64,000 nucleotides of DNA from an archaeon (lineage in GTDB: Archaea; Nanobdellota; Nanobdellia; SCGC-AAA011-G17; GW2011-AR20): NCBI GenBank assembly GCA_043808705.1, contig JAZDEO010000013.1:8081-72080 (forward strand), written 5' to 3'. The position numbers and the translations under genes are program-made. Below are positions 1 to 63,715 of this stretch, one piece after another. Within the stretch, counting starts at the first letter, position 1. Each line of letters opens with the position of its first letter. The notes under the pieces were generated by a model, which searched no databases, was not told the DNA's origin, and worked only from the letters and a program-made list of their open reading frames with translations.

Positions 1-18
1 AAGAAAATACACAAAAAC

Positions 19-147
19 TTATCTCTTTTTCTTTTTCTTTTTTCCGCCACGAGCCATCTTTGCTTCGCAAACGTTACCCTTTCCATCTACATAATATAAA
101 TAACCGGGTTTTCTTTTAACTACATTCTTTACAATTATAGATCCCAT
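19..147 (-). CDS. small basic protein (42 aa), hypothetical; Lys-rich C-terminal tail (…MARGGKKKKKKR)
   Basis: Hand-translated ORF (ATG at 145-147, TAA at 19-21), below ORF-track cutoff; MGSIIVKNVVKRKPGYLYYVDGKGNVCEAKMARGGKKKKKKR; no recognisable family. Confidence 0.25.
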   Translation of the reverse strand: MGSIIVKNVVKRKPGYLYYVDGKGNVCEAKMARGGKKKKKKR

Positions 148-274
148 TTTTTAACCTCCTGTTTTTAACTATCGTCGTAAATAGTGTGATTTACTAGTAT
201 ATAAATGTATTGAAACTTCTCGTCAGTAATTTAATAAACTATATTTTTATGACGGGGAATATCATTTATAATAA

Positions 275-646
275 CTAAAAAAACTTTTTTAAGCTACTTT
301 CTTTAATTTTCTCCGAGATAAGCACATATCTCCAGCCAACAACCTCTAATTTTTCCCTCTCATGACAATTAGGACATTGCGTTGGTGCTTTTTCAGATGT
401 ATTTGACATCCACTCCCAATTACATTTTAGGCAATGCATACTATATCTTACTGCTTTTTTCCCAGGTTTTATCATCTTAGGGGCTCTTAATTTTAAGAAT
501 ATATAAATTAAAATTAAGATTAATACAGGCAGAACTAAAGATAACAGAATAATATTCTTAGTTAAAAGCTTAAATGTTAAGAATACAATTACAACTAATA
601 ATGTATACAATAATGCAAAAATTAGATGATCCTTCTTTATTTCCAT
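275..646 (-). CDS. membrane-anchored zinc-ribbon protein (2 N-terminal TM helices, C-terminal CxxC…CxxC)
   Basis: ORF track; hydrophobic N-half, then HCLKCNWEW…CPNCHE zinc-ribbon-like motif. Confidence 0.5.
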   Translation of the reverse strand: MEIKKDHLIFALLYTLLVVIVFLTFKLLTKNIILLSLVLPVLILILIYIFLKLRAPKMIKPGKKAVRYSMHCLKCNWEWMSNTSEKAPTQCPNCHEREKLEVVGWRYVLISEKIKESSLKKFF

Positions 647-742
647 ATAAATATTATAGAAGAAAAATATATAAAGATAATCATAAATTCAAAAACCTAT
701 TACAGGATTAATAAAGTATTAAACTTATCAAAATAGAACACC

Positions 743-1609
743 TCATAATATAATTAGATAAGCACCAAATAACATAACAAGAGTTGCAATGATTTTTTTA
801 GTTAAATTCTTCTCATGAAATAACTCCCCACCAAGCAAAATAACTATTATAACATAAGTTCTTCTGATGGTTTCTACTAATGTTACGTTTTGTATTAAGA
901 TAGCCTGATTCTGTAGCAGTTTTGCAACAAGGATAAAAGTAGCAGCAAAAAAGATTAAGACCCCAGAGGTTTTAAAACCCCTCATAATTCCATTAATTCC
1001 ATCATGTAATAAAAAGATTAGAATTATCATATAAACCATAAAAAAGGTATAACTTATGAAAGTTAAAGTGTAAACATCAACTAATTTTGTACTTAATAAG
1101 TATCTAGCTAATATCAAGGATAAAGCCATCAAAGCTAAAGACAAGAAAACATAATTTATATACTGGCGCTTAAAAATATTAGCAAAAGGTTTTAAAAAAC
1201 CCCCTTTTCTAATTTCTAAAATATAAATTCCTACAATCAACAAAAATATTCCTAACAATTGTAAATAACTTATTGTTTCACCCAAAATTATTACTGCAAA
1301 AAATAAAATAAAAACAGGCAAAAACACCATTAAAGAACTAGCTGAAGATACCTCCATATGTCTTATCGCCTTGGCAGTAAAGAATGTAGATAACCCAAAA
1401 AATAAAGACTCCAGAGCAATTAAAATCCAGATCCTTAAATCAAGATTAAAGTCAACAAGTCTTATGAATATTAAGGATAGTATAAACATAAATATAGACA
1501 GAACACAAGAAAACTCTATTGAATGTTGTTTAATCAGACTCTTCTTTTCAATTATGACAGCTAAAGCAGTAAAAATAGCAGAACCAAAAGCAAACAAGTA
1601 CCACTCCAT
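743..1609 (-). CDS. EamA/DMT-superfamily permease (≈10 TM)
   Basis: 288 aa, entirely hydrophobic helices in two repeated halves typical of drug/metabolite transporter (EamA) proteins. Confidence 0.55.
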   Translation of the reverse strand: MEWYLFAFGSAIFTALAVIIEKKSLIKQHSIEFSCVLSIFMFILSLIFIRLVDFNLDLRIWILIALESLFFGLSTFFTAKAIRHMEVSSASSLMVFLPVFILFFAVIILGETISYLQLLGIFLLIVGIYILEIRKGGFLKPFANIFKRQYINYVFLSLALMALSLILARYLLSTKLVDVYTLTFISYTFFMVYMIILIFLLHDGINGIMRGFKTSGVLIFFAATFILVAKLLQNQAILIQNVTLVETIRRTYVIIVILLGGELFHEKNLTKKIIATLVMLFGAYLIIL

Positions 1610-1684
1610 TAGATTAATAAAATTTTTATTTTATTTAAAGTTTTCCAATACCTTTTTAAATCTAAATTTTTTACAAAGGATAGA

Positions 1685-1772
1685 GGGCTCTTAGCTCAGC
1701 TTGGTAGATTTTATAGCCAAAAGCAACTGACTCTTAATCAGTAGGTCGCGGGTTCAAGTCCCGTAGAGCCCA
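1685..1772 (+). tRNA. tRNA-Lys (anticodon CTT) with putative 14-nt intron in D-arm (≈1709-1722)
   Basis: Acceptor stem GGGCTCT/AGAGCCC, discriminator A. Anticodon stem ACTGA/TCAGT with loop CTCTTAA, so anticodon CTT. T-arm GCGGG-TTCAAGT-CCCGT. D-stem GCTC pairs with GAGC only after removing TTTTATAGCCAAAA. TATA-like TTTAAATCT about 25-30 nt upstream. Confidence 0.8.
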
Positions 1773-1797
1773 TTTAATAATCAAGATTAAATAACTC

Positions 1798-2136
1798 ATG
1801 ATGCAAACCTTAAAGGATTGGATAGATAAACTAAAGAAATCAGAATCCTTAATAATTGTAGAAGGAAAAAAAGACAAAGAAGCCCTAAATAAGTTAGGAA
1901 TTTATAAAGTAGAAACCTTAGATGGAAGACCAATCTATAAATTAGTAGAAGATATTTCTTTAAAAACAAAAAAAGTTATTATCTTAACAGATCTTGATAA
2001 ACAAGGCAAAGTATTCTATCATCAAATAAAACATAATTTACAAAAAAAGAAAATCTTAGTAGAAGACGGTTTCAGATATTTTTTATTTAAAAAAACAAAA
2101 ATCTCGTTTATAGAATCAATCCATAAATTTGTTTGA
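1798..2136 (+). CDS. small Toprim-domain protein (COG1658-like)
   Basis: IIVEGKKDKEAL…VIILTDLDKQG: conserved E and DxD of the Toprim fold, ~110 aa archaeal family. Confidence 0.6.
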   Translation: MMQTLKDWIDKLKKSESLIIVEGKKDKEALNKLGIYKVETLDGRPIYKLVEDISLKTKKVIILTDLDKQGKVFYHQIKHNLQKKKILVEDGFRYFLFKKTKISFIESIHKFV

Positions 2137-3915
2137 TTATTCAACTGTAACAGACTTACTCAAGTTTCTTGGATGGTCTACATCATAACCTTTCAAATCA
2201 GCAATATAATAAGCTAATAATTGTAGAGGTATGACATTAATTATAGGCTCTAGTTCTTCAATAGTTTTAGGCACATATATAACATGATTCACTTTATTCT
2301 TTATTTCATTATCACCCTCATCAGCAATTGCTATTATCTTACCATTTCTAGCTTTTATCTCTTCTATATTACTTAAAATTTTGTAATAAACATCATTTTT
2401 ATTTGCTATTACAACAACAGGCATATCCTCATCTATTAAGGCTATAGGCCCATGTTTCATCTCAGCAGCAGGATAACCCTCTGCATGAATATAAGAGATT
2501 TCTTTTAATTTTAAAGCACCCTCTAAAGCAACAGGAAAATTTATCCCCCTACCTAAGAACAAAAAATTGTTTCTTTTATAATAAACATCTGCAATTTCTT
2601 TTATATTATTCTTATTTAAAATATCTTTAACAATATTAGGAATTTTTTGTATTTCTTCAATTATCCTATTATCTTTTTTAAAATACAAACTTAGAATATT
2701 TAAGGCAATTACTTGGCTTGTAAAAGCCTTTGTACTAGCAACCCCTATCTCAGGTCCAGCATGAAGATATATTCCCTGTCCAGATTCTCGGGCAATACTA
2801 CTCCCTACAACATTAACAATTCCTATTGTTTTAGCCCCCTTCTTCTTAGCCTCTCTCAAGGCAGCTAATGTATCTGCAGTTTCTCCAGATTGGCTAATTA
2901 CAATAACCAAATCATTCTCGTTTATTATTGGATTTCTGTATCTAAACTCAGAGGCGTAATCGACTTCAACAGGAATTTTACAATTCTTTTCTATAATATA
3001 TTTTCCTATTAAAGCAGCATGCCAAGAAGTTCCACAAGCAGTAATAATAATCCTTTTTAATTTAGTTATAAAATCTTTATCGAGATTAATACTTATTTTT
3101 ATTTCATCATCTTTAATTCTACCCCTTATAGTATTCATAATACTCTCAGGTTGTTCATTAATCTCTTTTAACATAAAATGTTTAAAACCTTTTTTTTCAA
3201 TTTCTTCTAAATTCCATTCTATTCTTTCAATATGCCTACAATTTATATTTGCATCTTTAAGATTAGATAATGAATAGCTATCAAAATTAATTTCTAAAAC
3301 ATCATAATCTTCTAAATAAATAACATCCTTAGTATACGATATAATACTAGAAACATCAGACGATATAAAATACCCTTTATCATTTATGCCTAATATCAAA
3401 GGACTTCCTTTTCTTGCAGCAATAATCTTATCTCCATTCTTATTTATAACTAACAAACCATAAGTTCCATCAACTTTTACTAAAGCTCTTTTAACAGCAG
3501 TTACTAAATCCCCCTCATAAAACTCTTCTATCAAATGAGCCAAAACTTCAGAATCAGTATAACTCTTAAATACATGTCCTTTGTTTATCAAAACCCCTTT
3601 TAAAACATCAAAATTTTCTATAATTCCGTTATGAACAATTGAAATATTATTCTCACAATCATTATGCGGATGAGCATTTATATCAGAAGGAACACCATGA
3701 GTACTCCATCTAGTATGACCTATACCTATATTTGAATATAATTCAGGAACATTAAAACCATCTATCTTACCTTTCTTCTTGAAGGTTTTAATTTCATTAT
3801 TAATTATTACTGAAATTCCAACACTGTCATAACCTCTATACTCTAATCTTTTTAGTCCATTCATTAATATAGGAACACAATTCTCTTTTCCAATATAACC
3901 AATAATTCCACACAT
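2137..3915 (-). CDS. glmS: glutamine--fructose-6-phosphate aminotransferase (isomerising)
   Basis: N-terminal MCGIIGY (Ntn Cys), two SIS domains, C-terminal …SKSVTVE; 592 aa. Confidence 0.95.
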   Translation of the reverse strand: MCGIIGYIGKENCVPILMNGLKRLEYRGYDSVGISVIINNEIKTFKKKGKIDGFNVPELYSNIGIGHTRWSTHGVPSDINAHPHNDCENNISIVHNGIIENFDVLKGVLINKGHVFKSYTDSEVLAHLIEEFYEGDLVTAVKRALVKVDGTYGLLVINKNGDKIIAARKGSPLILGINDKGYFISSDVSSIISYTKDVIYLEDYDVLEINFDSYSLSNLKDANINCRHIERIEWNLEEIEKKGFKHFMLKEINEQPESIMNTIRGRIKDDEIKISINLDKDFITKLKRIIITACGTSWHAALIGKYIIEKNCKIPVEVDYASEFRYRNPIINENDLVIVISQSGETADTLAALREAKKKGAKTIGIVNVVGSSIARESGQGIYLHAGPEIGVASTKAFTSQVIALNILSLYFKKDNRIIEEIQKIPNIVKDILNKNNIKEIADVYYKRNNFLFLGRGINFPVALEGALKLKEISYIHAEGYPAAEMKHGPIALIDEDMPVVVIANKNDVYYKILSNIEEIKARNGKIIAIADEGDNEIKNKVNHVIYVPKTIEELEPIINVIPLQLLAYYIADLKGYDVDHPRNLSKSVTVE

Positions 3916-5545: not shown

Positions 5546-7597
5546 CTATTGGCTGTTCTTCTCTAATTTTAATAAAGCATCCCACTCTTTATCAACATGT
5601 TCCTGTACTTTATCAAGAATCTTTTTATTTTCATCTTTTAGGAGATGTTTAAATCTTCCTTGAAGTTTTAAAAATTCAATTATAGGTAGTCTATTTTCAT
5701 TCTTATAATTTATAGTATATTTATTATTTTCAACCTCATATAAAGGCCAGAAATTAGTCTTAACAGCCAATTCAGCTATTTTAACAGCTAAATTTGTATC
5801 AAATCTCCATCCTAAAGTACAAGGTTGTAATACATTTATGAATGCAGGACCATTAGCATTAAAGGCCTTCTCAGCTTTATTATAGAGATCTATTAAATTA
5901 TTTAAAGAAGCTTGAGCAACATAAGGAATATTATGAGCAACAACAATTTTAGTTATATCTTTTCTAAATTTCTCTTTGCCTTGATGGAACTTTCCTACTG
6001 TTTCTGTTGTAGTATCAGCTCCAAAAGATGTTGCAGAACTTCTTTGAACTCCCGTATTATGAACTATAATCCCATTAGCAATAAAGTTATGTTCACCCTC
6101 AACTCTTAAATCTAATGTTGGTTCAACGCCTAACTGTTTAATATTTCTTACTTTTTCTATACTAAAATATTTATTTTCTATTAAGAAATTTTTGTATTTA
6201 TACTGATTTTTATATTTTTTAGTGTTCCATATTCCAAGTTTACTAAAGCACATATACCAATATTGTGTATCTTTTAATAATTTTCTATAAACCACAACTT
6301 TACCTTTTTTTATTTTTATATTATGTAATTTTCCAACTCTATAATTCATAGTTTGTAATAATAATCTTAATCTTTTAACTAGATCATAACTTGAAGAGGG
6401 ATATCTCCAACTTTCACCCATTTTATATCCATCAGATAACATTAACCCCTCTAAAAATTCTTCTTTTTCTTTCTTAGTTAATGTAAATATCCATGAAGGT
6501 ATTGTTTTATTTTTAGAACCTTTACCTAAACCCAGAGAATCAATGAACTTTACAACATTAATAGATCTTATATACACCTCATTCTTTGATTCTACCGGTT
6601 TAATTTTAAATACCTTCTTTATAAGATTGATTAGTACCTTTCTAGCTTTATCTTTTTCAGGTATAGCAAAAGCAACTTCTGCTTTTTCTGTTCTAGTCCA
6701 ACCATCACCTACCCACAAACCCAATAATTTCATTAAATCTTCATTTGATTTTTTAGGTATTTTTACTTTGTTAATTTTATTTACTTTATAATCACCTTTC
6801 TTAGAAATATTTATTGGTTCAAAAACGTATTTTTTACCTTCTTTCAAATCTTTTTGAACAACTAAATCATCCCCCATCTTAATATTCTCTAATCTTTTCC
6901 AAATAAACTCATTAGTATTACTACGTCCATTATGTTTTAAAACTAAAAAGGGATGATTTCCTGTAGCCTTAATATCGTGATGTAAGGTTGATAAACTATA
7001 AACTCTTTTTTTTCCATTATCAAAAACACCATCACATTTTTTTAAAACTAAATCATAATTTTTTTGATCAAAAGCATATACCATTTCACCTTTCTTTATT
7101 TCAGTTATTAATTTTAATCCTTTTTCAGTCAAAATTAGACTGTCCAAAGTTAAACAGTTCATATAAGCTTCATTATTATACAAAACATAAACAAATTTAT
7201 GTCCTCTTTCTAAAGCACCACTTAATGCCTGTAACCCAATATCATATGTGCCACCATCACCACCAAACGCAACAAAATTAATATCTTTTTTTATCTTATT
7301 TTTTTTCTTTAACACATTAAAAGCAGTTTCAACACCAGATATAGTTGAAGCTGCATTTTCAAATGCATTATGTATCCAAGGAACATTCCAGGAACTAAAA
7401 GGATATATGCTAGATGTAACCTCCAAGCACCCAGTAGCACAAGAAACAACAACAGGTTTTTTAGAAGTACTTAAAACAGTTCTAACTATTTGAGGAATAC
7501 CACAACCACTACATGTTCTATGACCAGAAACAAACTTTTTATTTACACTCTGATCATTTGCTAGTTCAATTATATTCATTTTAATTCTTAATATCAA
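5546..7597 (-). CDS. porB: pyruvate:ferredoxin oxidoreductase beta subunit (TPP-binding) interrupted by an intein
   Basis: Exteins: CSGCG…, [10 protein letters not shown], …NNEAYMN|TGVQRSS… (conserved Y-M-N-T-G motif is split). Spliced extein 316 aa, consistent with typical PorB size. Confidence 0.9.
6056..7156 (-). mobile_element. intein (367 aa) with LAGLIDADG homing-endonuclease domain inside porB
   Basis: Starts CLTLDS (block A), ends …GIIVHN followed by +1 Thr; internal [10 protein letters not shown] and [20 protein letters not shown] blocks; in-frame. Confidence 0.85.
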
Positions 7598-9759: not shown

Positions 9760-11043
9760 ATGATAAATATAAACCTAATAAGAAAATATCCAGATTTAGT
9801 AAAAGAAAACATAAAAAAGAAATTTCAAGAGCATAGATTATTCTTAATTGACAGATTTAAAGTTTTGGATGAAGAATGGAGACACCTAAAAATAGAAAAT
9901 GATTCTTTAAGATCTAAAAGAAATAAGATTTCTCAAGAAATAAATGAAGCAAAAAAAACCAATGACCATAAACTTAAAGAACTAATAAAGGAAGCAAAAT
10001 CTATTCCAGAAAGAATTAAAGAGATTGATGAGAAATTAAAGAATTTGGAAGAAGAAATAGAACAAATAATGCATAAGATTCCTAATTTGATATCAAAGGA
10101 AACTCCATTAGGAAGAGATGAATCTCAGAATAAAGAAATTAAGAAACATGGTAAAATACCAAAATTTAAGTTTTCAATAAAAAATCATGTAGAATTACTA
10201 GAACATCTTAATTTAGTAGACTTTGAAGCATCAGCAAAGGTTTCTGGAAATGGTTTCTATTATTTAAAAGGAAAACTAGCTTTATTAAATCAGGCTTTAA
10301 TAAGATTTGTTATAGATTTTATGAACAAAAAGAAATATGAGTATATAGAAACACCTTTAATGTTAAATGAAAAATCTATATCTTCATCTATGGATAAAGA
10401 AACAATTGAAAATTCAGTCTATTCTATTAAAGACGAAGACTTAAACTTAATAGGGACAGCAGAACAGTCATTATTGGCTATGCACTCACAAAAGACAATA
10501 AAGGAATCAGAACTTCCAAAGAAATACTTTTCTTACTCAATGTGCTTTAGAAAAGAAGTAGGAGCCCATGGTATAAATGAAAAAGGCCTTTGGAGAACAC
10601 ACCAGTTTAATAAAATAGAACAATTTATTTTTTGTAAACCAGAAGACTCAGAAAAATTATACAAAGAATTATTAAAGAATTCAGAAGAGATATTAAATGC
10701 TTTAGAGCTTCCATATAGGGTTTTAGAAATATGTTCAGGTGATTTATCAGACTGGAAACATAGAAGCGCTGATTTAGAGGTTTATAGAGCAACAACAAAA
10801 TCTTATGGTGAAGTAATGTCTTTATCTAACTGTACTGATTACCAAGCAAGAAAACTTGATATAAAATGTATTGATAATAAAGGCAACAAAAGAACCTTGC
10901 ATACCTTAAACAATACAGCATTAGCAACATCTAGAATATTAGTTGCATTAACAGAAAACAATCAACAGAAAGATGGTTCAATAAAGATTCCAAAAGCATT
11001 ATGGAAATATACAGGATTTAAAAAAATAAGTTCTTTAAAATGA
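9760..11043 (+). CDS. serS: seryl-tRNA synthetase
   Basis: N-terminal coiled-coil arm, class II motifs (…FRKEVGAHG…, GTAEQSL…), 427 aa. Confidence 0.85.
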   Translation: MININLIRKYPDLVKENIKKKFQEHRLFLIDRFKVLDEEWRHLKIENDSLRSKRNKISQEINEAKKTNDHKLKELIKEAKSIPERIKEIDEKLKNLEEEIEQIMHKIPNLISKETPLGRDESQNKEIKKHGKIPKFKFSIKNHVELLEHLNLVDFEASAKVSGNGFYYLKGKLALLNQALIRFVIDFMNKKKYEYIETPLMLNEKSISSSMDKETIENSVYSIKDEDLNLIGTAEQSLLAMHSQKTIKESELPKKYFSYSMCFRKEVGAHGINEKGLWRTHQFNKIEQFIFCKPEDSEKLYKELLKNSEEILNALELPYRVLEICSGDLSDWKHRSADLEVYRATTKSYGEVMSLSNCTDYQARKLDIKCIDNKGNKRTLHTLNNTALATSRILVALTENNQQKDGSIKIPKALWKYTGFKKISSLK

Positions 11044-11654
11044 AGAAAAAACTAAAAATTTTAGCAGCAGGAGACATCCATGGTGATACTAGACTAGCTT
11101 ATTCTCTAGCAGATCAAGCAAAAAAGGAAAATGTTGATCTTGTTATTTTATGCGGGGATCTTACTTTTGGAGAAAGATCTACATCAAACATAATAGGGCC
11201 TTTTGTAAAGAAAAAACAGAAAGTCTTAATCATTCCAGGAAATCACGAAAGTTTTGCAACAGCAGACTTTTTAGCAGAAATGTACGGAGTCAAAAATATT
11301 CATGGTTACTATGTAAAATATAAGGGTGTTGGAATATTTGGATGCGGTGGAGCAAATATAGGAATCCATCAAATCTCTGAAGAAGAAATCTTTGATAATT
11401 TAAAAAAAGGTTTTTCAAATATTAAAGATTTGAACAAAAAGATAATGGTAACTCATGTTCATCCAGAGGGTGCTAAAATGGGAAAGTTTACTTCATTTTT
11501 TCCAGGATCATCAGGCGTTAAAAAAGCAATTAAAGATTTTAAACCGGATTTATTATTATGCAGCCATGTTCACGAAGCAGAGGGCATAGAAGAAAAACTT
11601 TATGATACAAAAGTTATAAATGTTGGAAGAAAAGGTAAAATAATAGAAATCTAG
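11040..11654 (+). CDS. calcineurin-like metallophosphoesterase
   Basis: AAGDIHGD, ILCGDLT, IPGNHE, VTHVHP motifs. Confidence 0.8.
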   Translation: MKKKLKILAAGDIHGDTRLAYSLADQAKKENVDLVILCGDLTFGERSTSNIIGPFVKKKQKVLIIPGNHESFATADFLAEMYGVKNIHGYYVKYKGVGIFGCGGANIGIHQISEEEIFDNLKKGFSNIKDLNKKIMVTHVHPEGAKMGKFTSFFPGSSGVKKAIKDFKPDLLLCSHVHEAEGIEEKLYDTKVINVGRKGKIIEI

Positions 11655-12385
11655 TTCTCATCTTTAAATATAATAATCTTATTTGGGTATACAACAACAC
11701 CATTATCAGTCATCTCCATTTTTATTGTTTTCTCAGCATGTCTCGTTCCCCTCATCTTTAATACCTCTATAGCCCTTTTTCTTATACCCTTCTCTTTTAC
11801 ATGATACATTAATATTATAGAATCGACCTCAAATTCTAATCCACCACTCTCAACCCGATCCATGTTTACGACATATTTTTCTGAAGTAAGTAATGTTGTG
11901 CAACCCCAGCTTCTTAATAACCCAAATAAAGATAAAGCAGCCTCTTTTTTTGCTAATTCATCTTGATATAACAAAACAAAAGAAGTAATAGAATCTATAA
12001 CCAATCTCTTAATATTGTATCTTGTTATAATATTCTCTATTAAACCTCCTCCTTCAACAAGCAATTTTTTTACTCTTTCAGGAGAATACTCTAAAAATAT
12101 AAACTTCTTTTCTTTTTCTAACTTTTCTAAATTCCATCCAAATTCAGACATATTCTCATAAAGCTCTTCCTTCTTTTCCTCAAAAGTTATATACATTCCA
12201 GGTTCATTATGTTTTAAGATTCCATTAACCAAATAAGCTACACTAAATATGGTTTTTCCAGAACCAGCCCCACCAATAATCAAATTCATACTCCTCTTCT
12301 TAAATCCACCGTTAACTAATTTATCAAAACCAGAAATATGTGTTGGAACTCTCTCAAACCTCGATTTTTTCATACTAAAATACAA
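11651..12385 (-). CDS. KaiC/RAD55-family RecA-like ATPase (FlaH-like?)
   Basis: RVPTHISGFDKLVNGG…IIGGAGSGKTIFS…LVIDSITS…LKMRGTRH; single KaiC domain, 244 aa, directly downstream of TadC-like gene. Confidence 0.7.
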   Translation of the reverse strand: MYFSMKKSRFERVPTHISGFDKLVNGGFKKRSMNLIIGGAGSGKTIFSVAYLVNGILKHNEPGMYITFEEKKEELYENMSEFGWNLEKLEKEKKFIFLEYSPERVKKLLVEGGGLIENIITRYNIKRLVIDSITSFVLLYQDELAKKEAALSLFGLLRSWGCTTLLTSEKYVVNMDRVESGGLEFEVDSIILMYHVKEKGIRKRAIEVLKMRGTRHAEKTIKMEMTDNGVVVYPNKIIIFKDEN

Positions 12386-12404
12386 AATTTTCTAATATAA
12401 AAAT

Positions 12405-13400
12405 CTATTGCATCATAAACAAACTACCCAACATGCTACTAACAATGAATCTTACCAAAAAGAACAAAAATATACTAAAAAATAAAACAGGTATTATATA
12501 CTTAAAACCCTCTTTTTCAGTACCTTTTTTTATCAAACCTATAAGCAAAGAACCAAAGAATGCTGTAGATATTAAAAATGCAACAATGTAAAAAATTAAA
12601 AAATCAATTGATACAGAAACCTTAGGAACAGCAAAAGGTAACCTAGCATTTCCTAAAGACTCCATATTAGGCACATTAACACTACTAATTGTTTTTGTTA
12701 AAATCTCTACTAAATAAGAAGATAATCCAAACAGAACAGGAGCCCCAATACATATAGCTACAAAGATAAACATTACATACATACCAACACTAGCTCTTAT
12801 TTTTTTATCAACCAAACTCTGATTTAACAAGTCTTCAGCAGTCTGTTCTAATAAAGAAGCAAGCTCTCCACCAGATCTTAAACCAGAAGTTATCAATAAA
12901 ATAGCTTTTTCTAATTTCTTTGACTTTACTCTTTGAGTCATTTCATTTAAAGCCCTTGTTATTTCCATACCTGCATTTATCTTTTTGCCAACAAGATTGA
13001 TTTCATCTTTTAAAGGACCAAATTCCGGTCTTATCGACATGAATAAAGCTCTATCTACAGTTAAACCAGCCCTTAAATTACTAGACATCAATTGTAGAGC
13101 ATCAGGTAAAACAGTCTCAATAAACTTTCCTTTTTTATCAGCATTAAATGTTAATAACATCATTTCAAAGATTATCATAAATAAAAAACATAATACAAAG
13201 ATCAAGAAAAAGTTTATTTTAAATAGAGCACCTAAATAAAATCCAAAGAGAGTAGAAATTAATAAATTAAACACTAAAATAAAACCTAAGAACTTATTAT
13301 AATCTGTCTTTAGATTAGAATACATTAATAAATTTATTATTTTTTTCTTTAAATTCTTTGGGTAAAAATTGCTTAATATTTTATAAAGTGTAGTAATCAT
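12405..13400 (-). CDS. type II secretion system F-domain membrane protein (TadC/EpdK/FlaJ-like)
   Basis: Multiple TM helices plus cytoplasmic T2SSF-like helical domain (LMSSNLRAGLTVDRAL…ITSGLRSGGELASLLEQTAEDL). Confidence 0.75.
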   Translation of the reverse strand: MITTLYKILSNFYPKNLKKKIINLLMYSNLKTDYNKFLGFILVFNLLISTLFGFYLGALFKINFFLIFVLCFLFMIIFEMMLLTFNADKKGKFIETVLPDALQLMSSNLRAGLTVDRALFMSIRPEFGPLKDEINLVGKKINAGMEITRALNEMTQRVKSKKLEKAILLITSGLRSGGELASLLEQTAEDLLNQSLVDKKIRASVGMYVMFIFVAICIGAPVLFGLSSYLVEILTKTISSVNVPNMESLGNARLPFAVPKVSVSIDFLIFYIVAFLISTAFFGSLLIGLIKKGTEKEGFKYIIPVLFFSIFLFFLVRFIVSSMLGSLFMMQ

Positions 13401-13401
13401 C

Positions 13402-14283
13402 TTAATCTCCTAATAAAGCAGGCCTCTTTGTTTTTATAAGTCCTAAAAAACTTATTTGAAATAAAAGTACAAATATAAATAATACTATTAAAAAAACCTT
13501 ATTTAAGTATTCGTTTAAAGATACAAAAGACGATATTACAACTAAAAAAGTGATTCCTAATGCTGGTGCAATTACTGCCAATAACATATAAAACATCGCT
13601 AATGGATTTAATTGACTGCCATAAGCCTCTATCTGAATTAATTGTTCCTGAGATAAAGATCTTATTATCTCATTTAAAACAGTAGTGATATTACTACCAG
13701 ATTTCATTCCATTTATCAATTGCCACATAACCTTCCTTAAGTAAATTGAAGAAGAATTCCTTTCTAATTCCTCTAAGACATCTATCTGAGGCGCTCCAGC
13801 ATTCATTTTTTTAACAACCTTTCCAAATAATTTAGATAGTTCTCCATAATTTGAATTTGATATAGAAATAAATATATCAAATAGATTAACTCCGGAATTA
13901 AGTTGTATGTATATTGTCCTTAAAGCAGGTAACAAGTTCCTTTCAATGTCCTTTGATTTTCTTCTAGCAATCAATTTTGGATATTTTAACTGTTGTAAGA
14001 AAACAAAAAAACTCAAGATTGAAGCAATAATAATTCCTAAATAAACATGACCTATTTTTATAAATATTACAGACAAAATTATAGCAATGAACAAAAAGAA
14101 TATTAATGTTGCAGCAACACACATACTAATATAATCTTTTACACCAACCTCTTGTTCAGATTGTTTCAATTCATTCTCAAGAAATGGAAGGAACTGTTTT
14201 AAAAACTCGCTAACACTCAAAAATCTCTTTCCAATAACTCTTAAATGGTTTATTGGTAAAATAGAAAAGGGTACCTTAATCAT
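13402..14283 (-). CDS. type II secretion system F-domain membrane protein (TadB/EpdJ/FlaJ-like)
   Basis: T2SSF-like helical domain (LNSGVNLFDIF…MKSGSNITTVLNEII) between TM helices. Confidence 0.75.
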   Translation of the reverse strand: MIKVPFSILPINHLRVIGKRFLSVSEFLKQFLPFLENELKQSEQEVGVKDYISMCVAATLIFFLFIAIILSVIFIKIGHVYLGIIIASILSFFVFLQQLKYPKLIARRKSKDIERNLLPALRTIYIQLNSGVNLFDIFISISNSNYGELSKLFGKVVKKMNAGAPQIDVLEELERNSSSIYLRKVMWQLINGMKSGSNITTVLNEIIRSLSQEQLIQIEAYGSQLNPLAMFYMLLAVIAPALGITFLVVISSFVSLNEYLNKVFLIVLFIFVLLFQISFLGLIKTKRPALLGD

Positions 14284-15784
14284 TTTTTAATAAGATCTTA
14301 TTAATGTCCATATTTTTCTTTACTATTTTTAACAATTCTTCTTTATTGAGATAATATTCTTTCATGACCTTTCCAACCTGATGTACATTTCTCACACTTT
14401 TTTTAACTAAAAAATCTAAAATATCCTTTTTTTCATTAATGTCGTCATCAATCTCATTCTGACTTAATCCAGTATGCCTACTCAATTGTTCAAATAATTT
14501 TACGCTAGGAAAGTATTTAGTTATTTTATCTGTAGAAGGATTCCATCTATAAATCAAATTAGGTTTAATCTTTCCTTCACTCTCCCCTAAGATAAATTCT
14601 CCAATATGATAAATCCTTCTAACATTTTTTCTTCTGTCTCTAAACATAACCACATTAAGATGAACAGCTTCAAGCAAATTTTCAGGAACCTCTATAGGAG
14701 GATTAATCAATCTTTTAATGGTCTCATTTGCGCTATCAGCATGTAATGTAGCATAAACACTATGGCCTGTATGCATAGCTTCAAATAAAACTCTTGCATC
14801 TTCACCCTTTCTAATTTCCCCTAAAATAAGTCTATCAGGTCTCATCCTTAATGCATTAATCATTAAATCTAACATACTTACTCCGCCCTCTCCCTCAGGA
14901 TTTGGTAATCTTGTTACTAAAGGACACCAGTAAAGATACTTAGGCAAATACAGTTCTCTAGTATCTTCTATACTTATTATTCTATGATTTGGTGGAATAA
15001 AAGGCATACATATGTTTAGCATAGTAGTCTTCCCTGAAGCTGTTCCCCCACTTACAATCATATTCATTTCATATTCCAAAGAAAGCCATATTAAAGCTAG
15101 AGCCTCAGAACTTATTACATTATCAGTGATTAGATCAGTCATAGTTATAGGATCACTTGAAAACTTTCTTAATATTATAGTATTACCTTTATTAGATATA
15201 GGATATAAAACAGAGTTTGCTCTATCACCAGAGATAAGGTGAGCATCAAGAAGAGGATTCAATATAGTTATTTGTTTTCCAACCTTTCTAGCAATTATAT
15301 TAGAATAATTAATAATCTGATCCTCACTTTCCATTTTAATATTTGTTGACAACCAACCATATTTTTTATGATAAACCCTTATAGGTTCATCAGCACAATT
15401 AATTATAATTTCTTCTAAATATCTGTCATGTAGAAAGTATTCTATTCTGCCTAATCCTAAAGTTTCATTAAGCAGGTAATCTATTAAGTAAGTTTTACTA
15501 GACTCAGATAATCCAGGCATGTAATCATCTAATAAAGAAACAGCCTTTTGTTTAAATCTCTCTTTAATCTCATCAGCAATCTTTGGATCTAATATCTCCT
15601 TTGATGTTAAATTTACCTCAGATATCAAAACATTCTTCAGTTCATCAATAAAAGCCAACGTTGGTTTTTTAAAAATAGACAAATCTAAAGTATAAACTAA
15701 GGAACTATCTTCTTGTTTAACTATTTTTATGTTAAGCTTTAGCTTATTAACTTCAATCTGATATTCTTCTACTATATTTCCCAT
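14276..15784 (-). CDS. type IV pilus/archaellum-family secretion ATPase (TadA/FlaI/VirB11-like)
   Basis: Walker A SGGTASGKTTMLN, Asp box, Walker B, His box (…ATLHADS…); 502 aa. Confidence 0.85.
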   Translation of the reverse strand: MGNIVEEYQIEVNKLKLNIKIVKQEDSSLVYTLDLSIFKKPTLAFIDELKNVLISEVNLTSKEILDPKIADEIKERFKQKAVSLLDDYMPGLSESSKTYLIDYLLNETLGLGRIEYFLHDRYLEEIIINCADEPIRVYHKKYGWLSTNIKMESEDQIINYSNIIARKVGKQITILNPLLDAHLISGDRANSVLYPISNKGNTIILRKFSSDPITMTDLITDNVISSEALALIWLSLEYEMNMIVSGGTASGKTTMLNICMPFIPPNHRIISIEDTRELYLPKYLYWCPLVTRLPNPEGEGGVSMLDLMINALRMRPDRLILGEIRKGEDARVLFEAMHTGHSVYATLHADSANETIKRLINPPIEVPENLLEAVHLNVVMFRDRRKNVRRIYHIGEFILGESEGKIKPNLIYRWNPSTDKITKYFPSVKLFEQLSRHTGLSQNEIDDDINEKKDILDFLVKKSVRNVHQVGKVMKEYYLNKEELLKIVKKNMDINKILLKND

Positions 15785-16653
15785 TTTTTAAAACTTATTT
15801 TATTTATTCCATGATAATGAACTTTTATTAATTCATGACTTTCTAATATCTTACCCCATCTCTCAGCATTTTCTCTAGTTACCTTAAATCTATCCATTAC
15901 GTCTTTTATATCCACAGAACCCTTTTCATTAACCCAATCATATAATATATCAACATAAGTCTCAAACTTTTTCAAAGGAACATTAGATTTCACAATTTCA
16001 ATATTTTTCTTATCAATAGTCTCTTTGCTAATTTTTTTATGCTCAAATTTAGGTATATTTCTTCTATTCATAAGACCCATAACCAAAACAAAAATACCTC
16101 CGATCAAGACTGCACCAAAAACGTAATAAAGAATCTCTTTATCCTTGCTTAAATTAATTATAAAATCTCTGCTTTGATATAAAAAGTAGATTACAATTAA
16201 AAAGAAAATAACTAAAATTATTTTTAAAAGAAACTTAAAATTAATCTTTTTGTCCAAACTCTTTATCTTTTCTCCAGAATCATTTTTGTTATTTTCACTA
16301 GAATCCTGTTTTCTTAAAACTTTAGGAATAGGGATCACAAAATCTATCTTTTTTTTATTTTCTTTTGAGGCGTTATATTCTTTTAATAAACCCTCAACAA
16401 GATTTTCAGGCCATTTCTCTTCTAAGAATTTCTTCTTGATAACATCAATAGAATAACCCCTTTTAACAGCATCTTTAATAACCGCCATAACCTGATTTTT
16501 ATTATACTTTAATTTATCAACAGGATGTTTATTATAATCTTTTTTATGAATCTCTTTCTTTAAAGAGTTTTTATGTTCTACATTCTTAATTAAATGTTTC
16601 TTATGATCTTTATGAATATTGCTCTTTTTCACACTCTTTTTTTTGATTTTCAT
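15772..16653 (-). CDS. membrane protein with Lys-rich N-terminus, 2 TM and C-terminal winged-helix-like domain; hypothetical
   Basis: ORF track; TM FLLKIILVIFFLIVIYFLY and VFGAVLIGGIFVLVMGLM; C-terminal helical domain. Confidence 0.4.
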   Translation of the reverse strand: MKIKKKSVKKSNIHKDHKKHLIKNVEHKNSLKKEIHKKDYNKHPVDKLKYNKNQVMAVIKDAVKRGYSIDVIKKKFLEEKWPENLVEGLLKEYNASKENKKKIDFVIPIPKVLRKQDSSENNKNDSGEKIKSLDKKINFKFLLKIILVIFFLIVIYFLYQSRDFIINLSKDKEILYYVFGAVLIGGIFVLVMGLMNRRNIPKFEHKKISKETIDKKNIEIVKSNVPLKKFETYVDILYDWVNEKGSVDIKDVMDRFKVTRENAERWGKILESHELIKVHYHGINKISFKKWEI

Positions 16654-17414
16654 CTTTTTTTACTTTTAATTAACAATCCAGTGGCTATAAATAATACAAT
16701 TATTCCTATAAATATTAACCACTTATAAACATTTTTGTTTTTAGGATCAATTTGTTTAATTTCTTTATTACCCTTCTCATCAAGTATATCTCCTTTTTGG
16801 GCATCAACATAAGTCCCATTTACATCCCAAATAAGTTTGAAATTACCTTCTTCTGTAGGAAGTATCTTTAATTCAGGTTGGCTATTTGAACTGGCTATAC
16901 TAGATGCCTGACCCGCACCTATTCCAGGACTTGTACTCTGAATATTAAAGGATGGATACCACATAAACCCTAATGAAAAAACCCCATAATCACCAACAGT
17001 TAGAATGCCAGCAAAGCTATTTACAACAGGTACACCATTACACTCCTGTTGATCAAAATTAAACAAGGTTAAACTTAAAGGATAGTTAGTTGTTTGTTCA
17101 ACAACAATCTCAACAGATTCTGGAATCCCTAAATCATCTCTATTTTCTTCTATAAATTCCGTTGCTAAAGCCAAAGCCTGCTCAATAGGCAATAATTGGC
17201 CATTCTCAGGAGGTTCAACATCAAGTCTTTCTACCTTTCTCATAATTCCATTTTGTATAGAAAATTCTTCAACACTCCACCAGCTTCCGTTCATAAAGAT
17301 AGTTCCTTGAGGGCTTATATTTGGAATTACCCACCCATTGAACTCACAATTTTCACTATTAACCTCTAAAGCAAAAAGAAGAATTAATACAAAAAACAGT
17401 AAATAAATTCTCAT
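16650..17414 (-). CDS. secreted/surface protein with N-terminal signal peptide and C-terminal TM anchor; hypothetical
   Basis: MRIYLLFFVLILLFALEVNS… and C-terminal WLIFIGIIVLFIATGLLIKSKKR. Confidence 0.45.
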   Translation of the reverse strand: MRIYLLFFVLILLFALEVNSENCEFNGWVIPNISPQGTIFMNGSWWSVEEFSIQNGIMRKVERLDVEPPENGQLLPIEQALALATEFIEENRDDLGIPESVEIVVEQTTNYPLSLTLFNFDQQECNGVPVVNSFAGILTVGDYGVFSLGFMWYPSFNIQSTSPGIGAGQASSIASSNSQPELKILPTEEGNFKLIWDVNGTYVDAQKGDILDEKGNKEIKQIDPKNKNVYKWLIFIGIIVLFIATGLLIKSKKR

Positions 17415-18303: not shown

Positions 18304-18787
18304 ATCACAATTATGGAGTATTGATTTTTTATTAGGTATGTTCATCTTTATATTATCCATAATATTCCTTTATAATTATATAATAAACACCCCTATAAAT
18401 AGTGATAGTACTATTATATCTGAATCATATATTATCTCTTCATCTCTATTATCAAAAGGCTATCCTATTGATTGGACCTTAAATAATGTAAGTAAAATAG
18501 GGATTGTTTCAGATAAAAGAATAAACTCAACAAAATTAGAATATTTGTCTGAAATGGATTATAGTGAAACAAAAAGTAAACTTAACATATTCAATGATTA
18601 TTATATATTCTTTTTAGATAAAAATAATCAATTATATCTCATAAATAACATAACTGGAATAGGAAAGCCTAATGTAAATAGCACAAACTTAAAACAAGTA
18701 GAAAATCCAAAGAATATAGTAAGAGTAGACAGAATTACTATACACAATAGTACTATAATAAAGATGGTGATCTACACATGGGGCTAA
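18284..18787 (+). CDS. pilin-like protein with N-terminal hydrophobic helix
   Basis: MSSISTKSQLWSIDFLLGMFIFILSIIFL…; 167 aa, same operon. Confidence 0.45.
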   Translation: MSSISTKSQLWSIDFLLGMFIFILSIIFLYNYIINTPINSDSTIISESYIISSSLLSKGYPIDWTLNNVSKIGIVSDKRINSTKLEYLSEMDYSETKSKLNIFNDYYIFFLDKNNQLYLINNITGIGKPNVNSTNLKQVENPKNIVRVDRITIHNSTIIKMVIYTWG

Positions 18788-21366
18788 AAGGGTATAAAGG
18801 ATATTTATTCAGTTTAGATGCCTTAATAAGTTTATTTTTAATAATTATCTTAATCCTATTGCTTCCAGGTTTTTATTCATACAAATCAGAAACGAAAAAC
18901 CTCAATTATATCTCTACAGATATTACAAATACTCTTTCTACATTAAAAGTTAATGAAATAAACAATGACTATGTAAAAACTTTAATCCAAAATAATGAAA
19001 TAACAAACCTAAATAATACTATTTTAGAACAGATAGGAGAGTTTTGGGCTCTAGGCAAAGAAGATGAAGCTCTACTTTTAATAAACAATACAATAAGCTT
19101 TTTTGTTCCAGAAGTATATAGTTATGGTATATGGATTAATAATCAAGAGATTTACAGTTCTAATAGAACAAACAAAAAACAATTGGTTGTTGCTCGAGAC
19201 CTAGTATCAGGCATACAAGAAGGACAAGCGATTTATGGACTAACAGCTAGAGTTCTTTTAAATTCAATAAATCAAAGAACATCTTCAAGTTTCGCTTTTT
19301 TTGGCGGCTATGTAGGTGATGGAAGAATATCCAAATATTTGATATTGCCTTCAACAGTAAACTCTATAAGCGAAGCATATATAGAATTAGATGTAGGTAA
19401 TAATTTTAATTTATATATAAATAACAACTTTTCAGGCACTTACACAAAACCAACTTCAGGTGTAGGGAAATATTATATAAATAATTCTTATTTAAACAAT
19501 TTTCATGAGGGCATTAACATAATATTGATAAATTTTACAACACCAGCTTCAAATTACATTGGAGGAGGTTATTTTAAAGTTAAATACCAAACATCAGAAA
19601 TAGAATTACTACAGATAAATTCAACAGATACAGACTATTTTCCAGGTATTGAAGGAATAATTAATATATATTCTTCAATCTATTCTCCAGGAAACATAAG
19701 CGCAATTGAAATTTACTTACATTATTACAATAATTATTCTATGTTTCTAAATATAGGAAACACAACAGTTTTTAATCAAACAAATTCAAGTTTAGAACAA
19801 TCTATATTAATTACTAATTCTCAAATACAATCAAAATTAAACTATGCACAATTAAGTAAAAAAACAGTTCCAATAAGGATAGGAACACAAGGAGGGAATG
19901 TTACATTTTATCAACAGGTTCCAAGTGACGTAATCTTAGTTACAGACACATCAGGAAGTATGTCAACTCAAGATATTTTAGGAGCTCCAGGATTAAGTAG
20001 ATTAGCTGTAGCAAAACAATTAGACAGAATCTTTGTTGATACTGTTCTAAACAGTTCAATTAACAGAGTTGGTTTAGTAAGTTACGCATCAACATTGAGG
20101 AGTTATGTTAATTTAACAAACAACAATCAAACACTCCAGAATGAAATAAATAGTTATACATCATCAGGTTCAACATGCATCTGTTGTGGCTTAAACAAAT
20201 CAATCAATATGTTGAATACACAAAGTACTTCACAAAAATATAAGTCAGTTGTTTTAATGAGTGATGGTGAAGCGAATGTAAGATGCACAACCAATTATCC
20301 ATGCCAATGTATAATGTGGGTTTGGGGTTTTTGTTGGTTTTGGGACTGTACTTTAGCAGCAAAAAAAGACGCAATTGATTTTGCATGTAATGCATCTAAA
20401 CTTTATAATATAACTGTCCATTCTGTAGGCTTAGGCCAAGAAGCAGATCTAGCAACTCTAAGAAACATTTCAGATTGTGGTAATGGTACATTCTATTCAA
20501 GTAATAATTTTACAGAACTTCAAGAGATATATAAAACTTTAGCAATAGAAGCAACATCAGCTCCATTAAGTTATGTAGAACAAACAGTTTCATTTTCAAA
20601 TACCTCCTCAAGACTATATCCAGACTCTTACATTAAAATAGATTATCAAAGAGAACTTCCATTATTACAATATAATTATATTACAATTCCTATTGAAACA
20701 CCAAGATTCAATAATGAAATAACAGAAGGTAACTTTTTCATACCATCTCAAGTATCAGTTATTGATGCAAGAATAACATCTTACTCAGCAAGTAAATGGA
20801 CAAATGATTTAAAGATCTATAATTCTGGAAATTTATGGACCAACTTATTTAATTTATCAAAGTATGGCCAAAATTATGAAACCTTAGGAGACCCATATAC
20901 AGTAAATATACCCTCAGAATACGTAAAGACAAATGAAAATAATTCAATAAGAATCTCTACAGGGCTTTCCCCATCAAATTATACAGGAGGTAATATAGAT
21001 GACAGAGCCATTTACACAATTGGCTTAAATCTATTTTTTAATTATTCTGGTGTGTTCCCAAAAGCGGAGGGATGTGACTGGTACTTAAATTTTGAAGATG
21101 GAAGTAATGCCACGATTTCAATACCACAAAATTATAGTTTAGACGAAATGTGTTATTACACAAGCTCTACTAATTGTGATGTAGATTATGGTGATGATGC
21201 AATAAATAATGCAGCATGCCACCTCTTCTTGCAATTAGACTTCGACAATAATGGAAAATTATATGTAAATTTTGACGAAGGGGATATAGATATAGACATT
21301 ATATCTGTCCCAGGAATACCTTACATGTGGGGTCCTGCATTAATTGAGGTAAGAACATGGCAATAA
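18778..21366 (+). CDS. large pilin-like surface protein with von Willebrand factor A (vWA) domain and Cys/Trp-rich segment
   Basis: N-term MGLKGYKGYLFSLDALISLFLIIILILLL (class III-like). vWA MIDAS DVILVTDTSGSM…SDGEAN. Cys/Trp-rich CICCGLNKS…CTTNYPCQCIMWVWGFCWFWDC. Asn/Ser/Thr-rich, 862 aa. Confidence 0.65.
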   Translation: MGLKGYKGYLFSLDALISLFLIIILILLLPGFYSYKSETKNLNYISTDITNTLSTLKVNEINNDYVKTLIQNNEITNLNNTILEQIGEFWALGKEDEALLLINNTISFFVPEVYSYGIWINNQEIYSSNRTNKKQLVVARDLVSGIQEGQAIYGLTARVLLNSINQRTSSSFAFFGGYVGDGRISKYLILPSTVNSISEAYIELDVGNNFNLYINNNFSGTYTKPTSGVGKYYINNSYLNNFHEGINIILINFTTPASNYIGGGYFKVKYQTSEIELLQINSTDTDYFPGIEGIINIYSSIYSPGNISAIEIYLHYYNNYSMFLNIGNTTVFNQTNSSLEQSILITNSQIQSKLNYAQLSKKTVPIRIGTQGGNVTFYQQVPSDVILVTDTSGSMSTQDILGAPGLSRLAVAKQLDRIFVDTVLNSSINRVGLVSYASTLRSYVNLTNNNQTLQNEINSYTSSGSTCICCGLNKSINMLNTQSTSQKYKSVVLMSDGEANVRCTTNYPCQCIMWVWGFCWFWDCTLAAKKDAIDFACNASKLYNITVHSVGLGQEADLATLRNISDCGNGTFYSSNNFTELQEIYKTLAIEATSAPLSYVEQTVSFSNTSSRLYPDSYIKIDYQRELPLLQYNYITIPIETPRFNNEITEGNFFIPSQVSVIDARITSYSASKWTNDLKIYNSGNLWTNLFNLSKYGQNYETLGDPYTVNIPSEYVKTNENNSIRISTGLSPSNYTGGNIDDRAIYTIGLNLFFNYSGVFPKAEGCDWYLNFEDGSNATISIPQNYSLDEMCYYTSSTNCDVDYGDDAINNAACHLFLQLDFDNNGKLYVNFDEGDIDIDIISVPGIPYMWGPALIEVRTWQ

Positions 21367-63500: not shown

Positions 63501-63715
63501 AATGTGGAAGACAATTAGGAATTTACATTAGAAAACATATCAAAGCTAAAGAACAAAAAGAAAAAGCAAATTTGTTTGAAAAATACATTCCTGAATTAGC
63601 ATCATCACTTTCAAATTTAACAGGCGACAAAAAAGATAAGATAGAGGAAGATCTATTAAAGATATTAAAGAAAGGAATTCCAGAAATAGAAGAAAATGGA
63701 CAAATCGAAAAATAA
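60596..63715 (+). CDS. top6B: DNA topoisomerase VI subunit B interrupted by a 514-aa intein
   Basis: GHKL/Bergerat ATPase (VDNSVDACEEAG…ILEDNGPGI…LLYGTKFH). Exteins …GNPFQIE | CAIAYGGDIE. Spliced extein 525 aa. Confidence 0.9.
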   Translation: MTEQKNANELAKEFRSVSVSDFFARNRHLLGYDNPIKALLTVIKEGVDNSVDACEEAGILPDVYIEIKQLNETRFIIILEDNGPGIVKKHIPNVFASLLYGTKFHRLRQSRGVQGIGISSAVLYAQLTTAKPTKIWSKIDGNNKAFYYELHINTQKNEPEIVKEEDIDWPNKKTGIKIELEIEAKYQKGQQSVDQYLKQTAIANPHLQITYISPLGEKLEFPRATKELPKEPKRISPHPYGIELGILMKMLSDTKHGKLSSFLQNEFCRVSPNVSKEICEKASLPENSRPSRIARQEAEKLFKAIQETKIMAPPTDCLSPIGQELLEKGLKKEINADFYASVTRSPSVYRGNPFQIECCTGDTKLISEEGGILNIKDFVENKINKKVFAMDSNLKIRPVKVIAWHKFKNKHKILKIKTKSGRSLKITDNNQLPIIENGEIIWKESKDVMAGDFIASPRKYNIKGYVPNILDLFKENEKDIQICDKEIIILVLDLLKNKFSSLKKSSKKLNIDYDYFKAMYRKGNSTKPSLDLFKRMCTLAELKDNFIYNIKKIRFVNNRFKNPKSINIPKINEDLFYVLGLLNSDGFISKKLVSFVNKDEYLHSLYSLKIYQLFGLKTKRYNINSSIYNKTLSEVLNRLEKIICKLPDYLVIAWLKGFVDGDGWVNLKDGVIKRIGITTAKEEKAEFTQFLLLRLGIISKIERKGVSNCQGNINGRIIKTLKPQYNIIIRDFENINKFSLLISFRQLNRSHLLSKGLIKQLKHLKDIVPLGKLLKRFREENNLYQYELGFSDDNIRSIEKGNYHIGRGNLQKIIELQNYSSDSFEKLKNLAYSDVLWDKITDIELVENENYVYDLTTEVGNFVADNIIMHNCAIAYGGDIEKEDVIRLLRFANRVPLLYQKGACAVTRAVGETNWKQYGLQQSGKNLPVGPIVLVVHIASVWVPFTSEAKEAIAHYPEIIKEIKLALQECGRQLGIYIRKHIKAKEQKEKANLFEKYIPELASSLSNLTGDKKDKIEEDLLKILKKGIPEIEENGQIEK
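61667..63208 (+). mobile_element. intein with LAGLIDADG endonuclease in top6B
   Basis: CCTGDTKLISEEG (block A) … DNIIMHN + Cys(+1); LAGLIDADG blocks LGLLNSDGFIS, WLKGFVDGDGWVN. Confidence 0.85.

Follow-up and report, generated by a model that had tools for sequence, protein, structure and literature searches.

Position 22/23 is listed among the known non-canonical intron sites of archaeal tRNAs (PMC4090602, citing Marck & Grosjean 2003 and Sugahara et al. 2008), and introns of the D-arm are mentioned as routine (PMC12397907). Thaumarchaeota are rich in non-canonical tRNA introns, with 107 of them in 11 genomes (PMC8450103). For DPANN archaea, Kaneta et al. 2018 (PMC5829648) describe the endonucleases as mostly of the alpha4 type with an L3 loop, and associate alpha4 EndA carrying this loop with increased disruption of tRNA genes. 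In Nanoarchaeum equitans and Staphylothermus, tRNA-Lys(CUU) is split at 30/31 (PMC4090602). The literature searched holds no description of the 22/23 intron reported here, nor of an orthologue series with 0–3 introns, a statement that leaves aside the supplement of PMC5829648.

The gene considered here lies at positions 1685–1772 of the forward strand of the window, by which is meant the whole 64-kb stretch of DNA analysed (1–64000). It is very likely a tRNA-Lys(CUU) gene that functions in a DPANN archaeon of low GC content and is interrupted at position 22/23 by a 14-nt intron of the relaxed bulge-helix-bulge (BHB) type. The gene, the intron boundaries (up to an ambiguity of one A), the pairing scheme, the conservation and the archaeal host were all read directly. 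Such introns are already on record for archaea, and what is new fills a gap in the catalogue and introduces no new principle.

Gene structure

From position 1685 onward, the 88-nt gene reads GGGCTCT TA GCTC AGCTTGGTA G, followed by the intron ATTTTATAGCCAAA and then by AGC A. The remainder is ACTGA CTCTTAA TCAGT AGGTC GCGGG TTCAAGT CCCGT AGAGCCC A, in which the last base is the discriminator (A); the 3' CCA is not encoded. The parts of the gene, and the element upstream of it, are as follows.

1653–1660 (+), TATA-box-like element TTTTTAAA, its centre ~28 nt upstream of where the tRNA begins, conserved in orthologues
1685–1707 (+), 5' exon (tRNA nt 1–22): acceptor 5' strand, U8 A9, GCTC, D-loop AGCTTGGTA and G22, as given by the sequence, the spliced cloverleaf and the BHB register
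1708–1721 (+), 14-nt intron ATTTTATAGCCAAA at tRNA position 22/23, as given by the spliced cloverleaf, the BHB register and orthologous introns at the same site
1722–1772 (+), 3' exon (tRNA nt 23–73): AGC of the D-stem, anticodon arm, variable loop, T-arm, acceptor 3' strand and discriminator A
1733–1735 (+), anticodon CTT (Lys), in a 7-nt loop CTCTTAA closed by ACTGA/TCAGT

Run on the window, ARAGORN finds a gene with identical ends but assigns it to tRNA-Ala(agc). The Rfam tRNA model RF00005 passes its threshold on the unspliced sequence (34 bits, the gathering score being 29), with a match from 1698 to 1764 that shows a 15-nt insertion in the D-arm. When the 14 nt are deleted, the remaining 74-nt sequence is called tRNA-Lys(ctt) by ARAGORN and folds into a perfect cloverleaf, with a 7-bp acceptor stem, a 4-bp D-stem (GCTC/GAGC), the anticodon stem ACTGA/TCAGT and the T-stem GCGGG/CCCGT. 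G18 and G19, the T-loop UUCAAGU and the CUU anticodon within a 7-nt loop are all in place, and the structure is canonical only once the 14 nt have been removed. A sequence-only reading of the locus had already proposed a tRNA-Lys(CTT) whose D-stem forms only after excision of a 14-nt insert, placed in the D-arm at 22/23 and not at the usual 37/38; the spliced product agrees with the identity, the length and the D-stem, and the BHB register (below) with the site.

ARAGORN's intron mode, which models anticodon-loop introns only, returned a nonsensical tRNA-Ile with a 121-nt intron from the precursor. The exons are collinear and contiguous at 1685–1772, and thus neither split nor permuted. At 14 nt, the insert compares with a ribozyme core of at least ~200 nt in self-splicing group I and group II introns, and so belongs to neither group. 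ARAGORN and Rfam each detect a single tRNA in the 64 kb, and Rfam at E ≤ 1 shows no second tRNA, disrupted tRNA or other RNA family across the whole window.

Splice sites and the BHB motif

The BHB rule was derived from the anticodon–intron pairing of canonical introns (PMC4090602). As applied here, it calls for a helix of 4 bp flanked by 3-nt bulges, one on each strand, with a cut after the second nucleotide of each bulge (the cut is marked below by a slash within the bulge). The corresponding elements in the window are these.

1702–1705 (+), 5' strand of the central helix, D-loop U17a G18 G19 U20 (UGGU), pairing with 1716–1719 in the MFE, centroid and RNAalifold structures
1706–1708 (+), 5' splice-site bulge, A21 G22 / A, with the predicted cut at 1707/1708, after the second bulge nucleotide
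1716–1719 (+), 3' strand of the central helix, intron GCCA; RCCA is kept in every non-thaumarchaeal copy, against a variable intron interior
1720–1722 (+), 3' splice-site bulge, A A / A23, with the predicted cut at 1721/1722; AA/A in 11 of 11 non-thaumarchaeal copies

Since an A stands at both junctions, excision of 1708–1721 or of 1709–1722 yields the identical mature sequence, and cuts at 22/23 and at 23/24 cannot be told apart from the mature product alone. The sequence-only reading had put the insert at about 1709–1722, which implies a cut one base further right (23/24), from a simple UUUU/AAAA hairpin. In favour of this, the UUUU at 1709–1712 is indeed complementary to the AAAA at 1719–1722 in the window copy. 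In that register, however, none of the four central-helix pairs forms (0/4) and there are no bulges, whereas the register 1708–1721 gives the 4-bp central helix flanked by 3-nt bulges on opposite strands. The UUUU/AAAA complementarity is moreover absent from homologues, for example L021 (GCGAAAGACCAAA) and L017 (ATGGCAACAGCCAAA), while the pairing of the D-loop with RCCA is universal. The hairpin, unconserved and yielding no BHB, was rejected, and the more rightward cut is judged unlikely. Only 1708–1721 satisfies the BHB rule, and the intron is therefore assigned to these positions and to site 22/23; the length and the spliced product proposed earlier stand, and the position moves one base to the left.

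Folding of the whole precursor, which had been suggested as a way of looking for a BHB or hBH' motif, gives –28.5 kcal/mol (z = –2.2) with the central helix present in both the MFE and the centroid structures, and the RNAalifold consensus contains it as well. The flanking helices are short. The inner helix of the window copy consists of the single pair U1709–A1715, so that the 5' site is effectively placed in a 10-nt loop. The outer helix, contributed by A23-G24-C25, has two competing registers, with G15-C16-U17 in the precursor fold or with G10-C11-U12 in RNAalifold, and amounts to 1 bp in strict register or to 3 bp with a 2-nt bulge. The window copy thus departs from the strict hBHBh' form, in which outer and inner helices have at least 2 bp each. 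The BHB motif predicted earlier for the junctions does form in a BHB-like version that is conserved; in the modelled structures it is a relaxed BHB of the HBh'/bulge-helix-loop class, weak in this copy, and the strict version is not what is seen. The isolated D-arm/intron segment (–5.1 kcal/mol, z = +0.75) is no more stable than shuffled sequence, and a 4-bp helix in the required register is expected by chance in ~6% of random inserts of the same base composition. The case consequently rests on comparison with other sequences.

Homologues with an insert at position 22/23

With each GTDB species represented by one genome, a pattern scan returned 14 tRNA-Lys(CUU) genes with an insert at this site, all from Thaumarchaeota (L001–L014). 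A scan of metagenomes from which the thaumarchaeal acceptor type was excluded added 7 genes (L015–L021), and look-ups of genomic context added L022, identical in sequence to L019, and L027. The same design is found in 10 other archaeal metagenome loci (9 distinct sequences) and in 14 species of Thaumarchaeota.

The features of the motif are constant over this range. The 5' bulge is AG/A or AG/G in 23 of 23 intron-bearing sequences (the set of 22 plus L027), the 3' bulge is AA/A, AG/A or AU/A, and the 4 nt preceding the 3' bulge are throughout paired to the D-loop. All four central-helix pairs (UGGU with GCCA or ACCA) are present in 11 of 11 non-thaumarchaeal copies, the window included, and at least three of four in 14 of 14 thaumarchaeal copies. 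Insert lengths range from 12 to 29 nt over the 23 sequences, and removal always restores a perfect cloverleaf. Among the non-thaumarchaeal introns the interiors vary in both sequence and length (13–20 nt), and the inner helix shows compensatory changes: UUUC/GAAA, UG/CA, AA/UU, C/G and U/A. It reaches 4 bp in L015, L016 and L018. In an alignment of 8 sequences, 96% of the cells are paired, a value reached by no shuffle, with the central helix 100% paired; when the partners are slid by one column, pairing drops to 47–50%.

The first pair of the central helix is U.A, A.U or C.G across 22 sequences from several phyla. Within the non-thaumarchaeal copies the central helix is conserved with zero covariation, and covariation appears only when Thaumarchaeota are brought in, a comparison that phylogeny confounds. 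As read from the sequences, homologous genes keep the predicted BHB-like motif and show compensatory changes in it.

Some of the homologous loci have features of their own. In three of the thaumarchaeal tRNA-Lys(CUU) genes, the bases 5' of the D-stem (L004:7846-7857, L011:5057-5068, L013:6015-6026) do not make an acceptor strand, a sign that another intron, or a split, may lie near position 9/10. In four others (L002, L006, L010 and L014) the variable region is interrupted by a second intron. The loci L015–L018 and L020, which also bear the intron but are more distant, show no synteny with the window. On L020, RNA polymerase subunits B and A' appear as one uninterrupted ORF (10690–14511, +; >1273 aa), which the end of the locus cuts off, and in L015 and L016 the tRNA-Lys also lies just upstream of rpoB.

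Orthologous loci with zero to three introns

The gene order zinc-ribbon protein, EamA transporter, tRNA-Lys, small Toprim protein and GlmS is shared by the window, L019/L022 (80% nucleotide identity over window positions 16–2558) and L021 (~72%). The Toprim-domain protein of the window (112 aa; 1798–2136, +) is encoded directly downstream of the tRNA. Its homologues are named 'RNase M5-like' by JGI, and its place beside tRNA-Lys is kept with and without an intron, no link to the intron being shown.

The exons of L019/L022 and L021 differ from those of the window by at most 4 bases. Of their introns (ATATTAAAGCCAAA in L019/L022, GCGAAAGACCAAA in L021), only the helix and bulge nucleotides are kept relative to the window. 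The syntenic loci L019/L022, L021 and L027 have orthologous introns at 22/23, 13–14 nt long. The upstream element TTTTTAAA is invariant in four aligned orthologous loci, one of them intron-less, and by position and sequence we infer that it is a putative archaeal TATA box/promoter.

These data bear on whether the locus is a tRNA-Lys pseudogene in decay, put out of action by a 14-nt insertion that is not spliced out. The weakness of the BHB in the window copy would fit such a history, as would the failure of ARAGORN to call Lys. Against it, the exons are nearly invariant in syntenic relatives although the flanks are only 72–80% identical, conservation within the insert is confined to the nucleotides that form the helix and bulges, the promoter element is conserved, and the inserts of all 23 sequences can be removed to leave a perfect cloverleaf. 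Decay is judged an unlikely explanation of the locus, and the gene is probably functional.

Least credible of all is an 88-nt RNA that works unspliced, either as tRNA-Ala(AGC) with a long variable arm or as tRNA-Lys with an enlarged D-arm (GCUU/AAGC stem). The ARAGORN report of tRNA-Ala(agc) at 1685–1772 and the Rfam alignment, which pairs AGCUU with AAGC, speak for it. The Ala fold, the only intron-free cloverleaf, was rejected: its D-stem is defective (two good pairs only), and orthologues whose introns differ slightly yield Phe(aaa), '???' or no call at all in place of Ala. Its anticodon stem is A-U-rich, and it turns the true anticodon arm into the long variable arm. The GCUU/AAGC stem leaves 7 nt, not 2, between the acceptor and D stems, the Rfam match is local only (model positions 9–63), and U17 is not conserved among homologues. 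Spliced in silico, the single-intron homologues are all called tRNA-Lys(ctt) by ARAGORN, while the unspliced sequences give no call, Ala, Phe or '???', and this disposes of an alternative cloverleaf without an intron.

The neighbourhood of the gene was followed outward by way of the Toprim protein, and relatives were found in which the number of introns in tRNA-Lys(CUU) differs. Identities below are those of the Toprim protein to that of the window.

L027, ~62–167, 76% identity: two introns, at 22/23 (13 nt) and 37/38 (19 nt)
L028, ~80–295, upstream of the Toprim gene (296–631), 62% identity: three introns, at 30/31 (17 nt), 37/38 (12 nt) and 53/54 (32 nt), and none at 22/23
L025/L026 (L025:2419-2494), 55% identity: tRNA-Lys(CUU) without introns, in the same gene order as the window
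Several other loci, 52–66% identity: no tRNA adjoining the Toprim gene

In L033 the context look-up showed no adjacent tRNA. In L028, the 4-bp helix is perfect at both 30/31 and 53/54. The genes of L027 and L028 both splice in silico to a canonical tRNA-Lys(ctt), and ARAGORN does not detect that of L028 until all three introns have been removed. Since orthologues with other BHB introns also resolve to tRNA-Lys(ctt), the lineage evidently handles non-canonical introns, and on these sequences it clearly appears both to tolerate them and to turn them over. L021 and L025 come from one metagenome (Ga0180009), so that intron-bearing and intron-less relatives co-occur.

A wider reading is put forward tentatively, as a possibility somewhat short of an even chance. 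Within one family-level, Woesearchaeota-like group of DPANN archaea with the same EamA and Toprim neighbours, tRNA-Lys(CUU) genes with 0, 1, 2 and 3 introns may reflect recent and ongoing gain and loss outside TACK, with the window intron as a near-minimal substrate. If so, the endonuclease of the lineage (probably alpha4 with an L3 loop, and predicted to be of relaxed specificity) must cut a site that has no inner helix.

Host and genomic surroundings

The window has a GC content of 28%. Its archaeal markers include MCM, topoisomerase VI-B, family B polymerase, FEN1, RFC, TBP, aIF2-beta and Cdc48, and it also encodes an archaeal-type pilus/secretion ATPase cluster. An archaeal lineage had been proposed for this DNA from the form of the intron, and MCM, topoisomerase VI-B, the family B polymerase, TBP and aIF2-beta bear this out. 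The nearest named homologues of MCM, at 66–84% identity, carry the labels Nanoarchaeota, Woesearchaeota or Nanoarchaeia, which points to a DPANN archaeon related to Nanoarchaeota/Woesearchaeota as the host. A Pfam scan of the 53 window ORFs of at least 120 aa, together with the Toprim ORF, found no tRNA_int_endo (EndA) or RtcB domains.

A cluster at 11651–17414 (–) comprises a KaiC-like ATPase, two T2SS-F-type membrane proteins, a T2SS-E/PilB-type ATPase and two ORFs without an assigned family, and looks like an archaeal type IV pilus-like apparatus. It is followed on the other strand by a von Willebrand A domain protein (18778–21366). The density of inteins is high: four genes within the 64 kb carry LAGLIDADG homing-endonuclease inteins, at 5546–7597 (–), 34471–37083 (+), 41430–43853 (–) and 60596–63715 (+), the intein hosts being the pyruvate:ferredoxin oxidoreductase TPP subunit, FEN1, a HerA-like ATPase and topoisomerase VI-B.

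Proposed processing

Transcription, cleavage, ligation and the type of endonuclease are modelled here on the established archaeal pathway. Transcription would probably start from the TATA-like element ~28 nt upstream. In the precursor, the GCCA of the intron is predicted to capture U17a-G18-G19-U20 of the D-loop, forming the 4-bp central helix. The 3' site would then lie in the AA/A bulge, between this helix and the short outer helix of A23-G24-C25 with GCU(10–12) or GCU(15–17), while the 5' site AG/A would lie in a bulge closed by one U-A pair and effectively be part of a loop, which makes the whole a bulge-helix-loop. The splicing endonuclease (EndA) is predicted to cut at 1707/1708 and 1721/1722; with no proper inner helix at the 5' site, the literature leads one to expect an enzyme of relaxed specificity. 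An RtcB-type ligase would join the 23-nt and 51-nt exons. On ligation the GCUC/GAGC D-stem could close and G18-G19 would be freed for the elbow contact with the T-loop, and CCA would be added post-transcriptionally. Because the intron ties up G18-G19 in the precursor, folding of the tRNA elbow should depend on splicing.

The main value of the locus is for annotation. A standard tRNA finder misses the gene or calls it tRNA-Ala (tRNA-Phe in a relative), with the result that genomes of this lineage would seem to be without tRNA-Lys(CUU) and yet to possess a spurious tRNA. The series of orthologues with 0, 1, 2 and 3 introns could be used to study the gain and loss of BHB introns, and also to probe which substrates the splicing endonucleases of DPANN archaea accept, enzymes whose biochemistry is a matter of prediction.

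Comparison with known systems

Relative to the known 22/23 introns of Crenarchaeota and other archaea, the window intron occupies the same site in the 3' strand of the D-stem, has the same 4-bp helix and splice-site bulges in relaxed hBH/HBh' variants, and likewise leaves a restored cloverleaf. It differs in that its host is a low-GC DPANN archaeon and not a member of TACK, and in that this copy is very short (14 nt), with an inner helix of one pair and a 5' site that is effectively looped.

The D-arm introns of thaumarchaeal tRNA-Lys(CUU), known here from 14 GTDB species representatives (L001–L014), agree with it in isoacceptor and position. They share the pairing of NGGU in the D-loop with RCCN' in the intron, and the bulges AG/A and then AA/A, AG/A or AU/A. 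In contrast, the thaumarchaeal tRNA bodies are different, the first helix pair is A.U, C.G or mismatched and not U.A, and the introns, 12–29 nt long, often have an inner helix of 4–5 bp and are frequently accompanied by a second intron. At this site the geometry of a BHB imposes the pairing, so that its presence in both DPANN and thaumarchaeal copies is no proof of common descent.

The disrupted tRNAs of DPANN genomes surveyed in PMC5829648 come from the same superphylum and include non-canonical and multiple introns in genomes of Pacearchaeota and Woesearchaeota. The figures of that study are counts per genome. The split tRNA-Lys(CUU) of Nanoarchaeum and Staphylothermus is a disruption of the same tRNA species that would, by analogy, be repaired by the same endonuclease pathway. 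In the window the exons are contiguous on one strand and the break falls at 22/23; in the relative L028, an intron lies exactly at the 30/31 position of the split.
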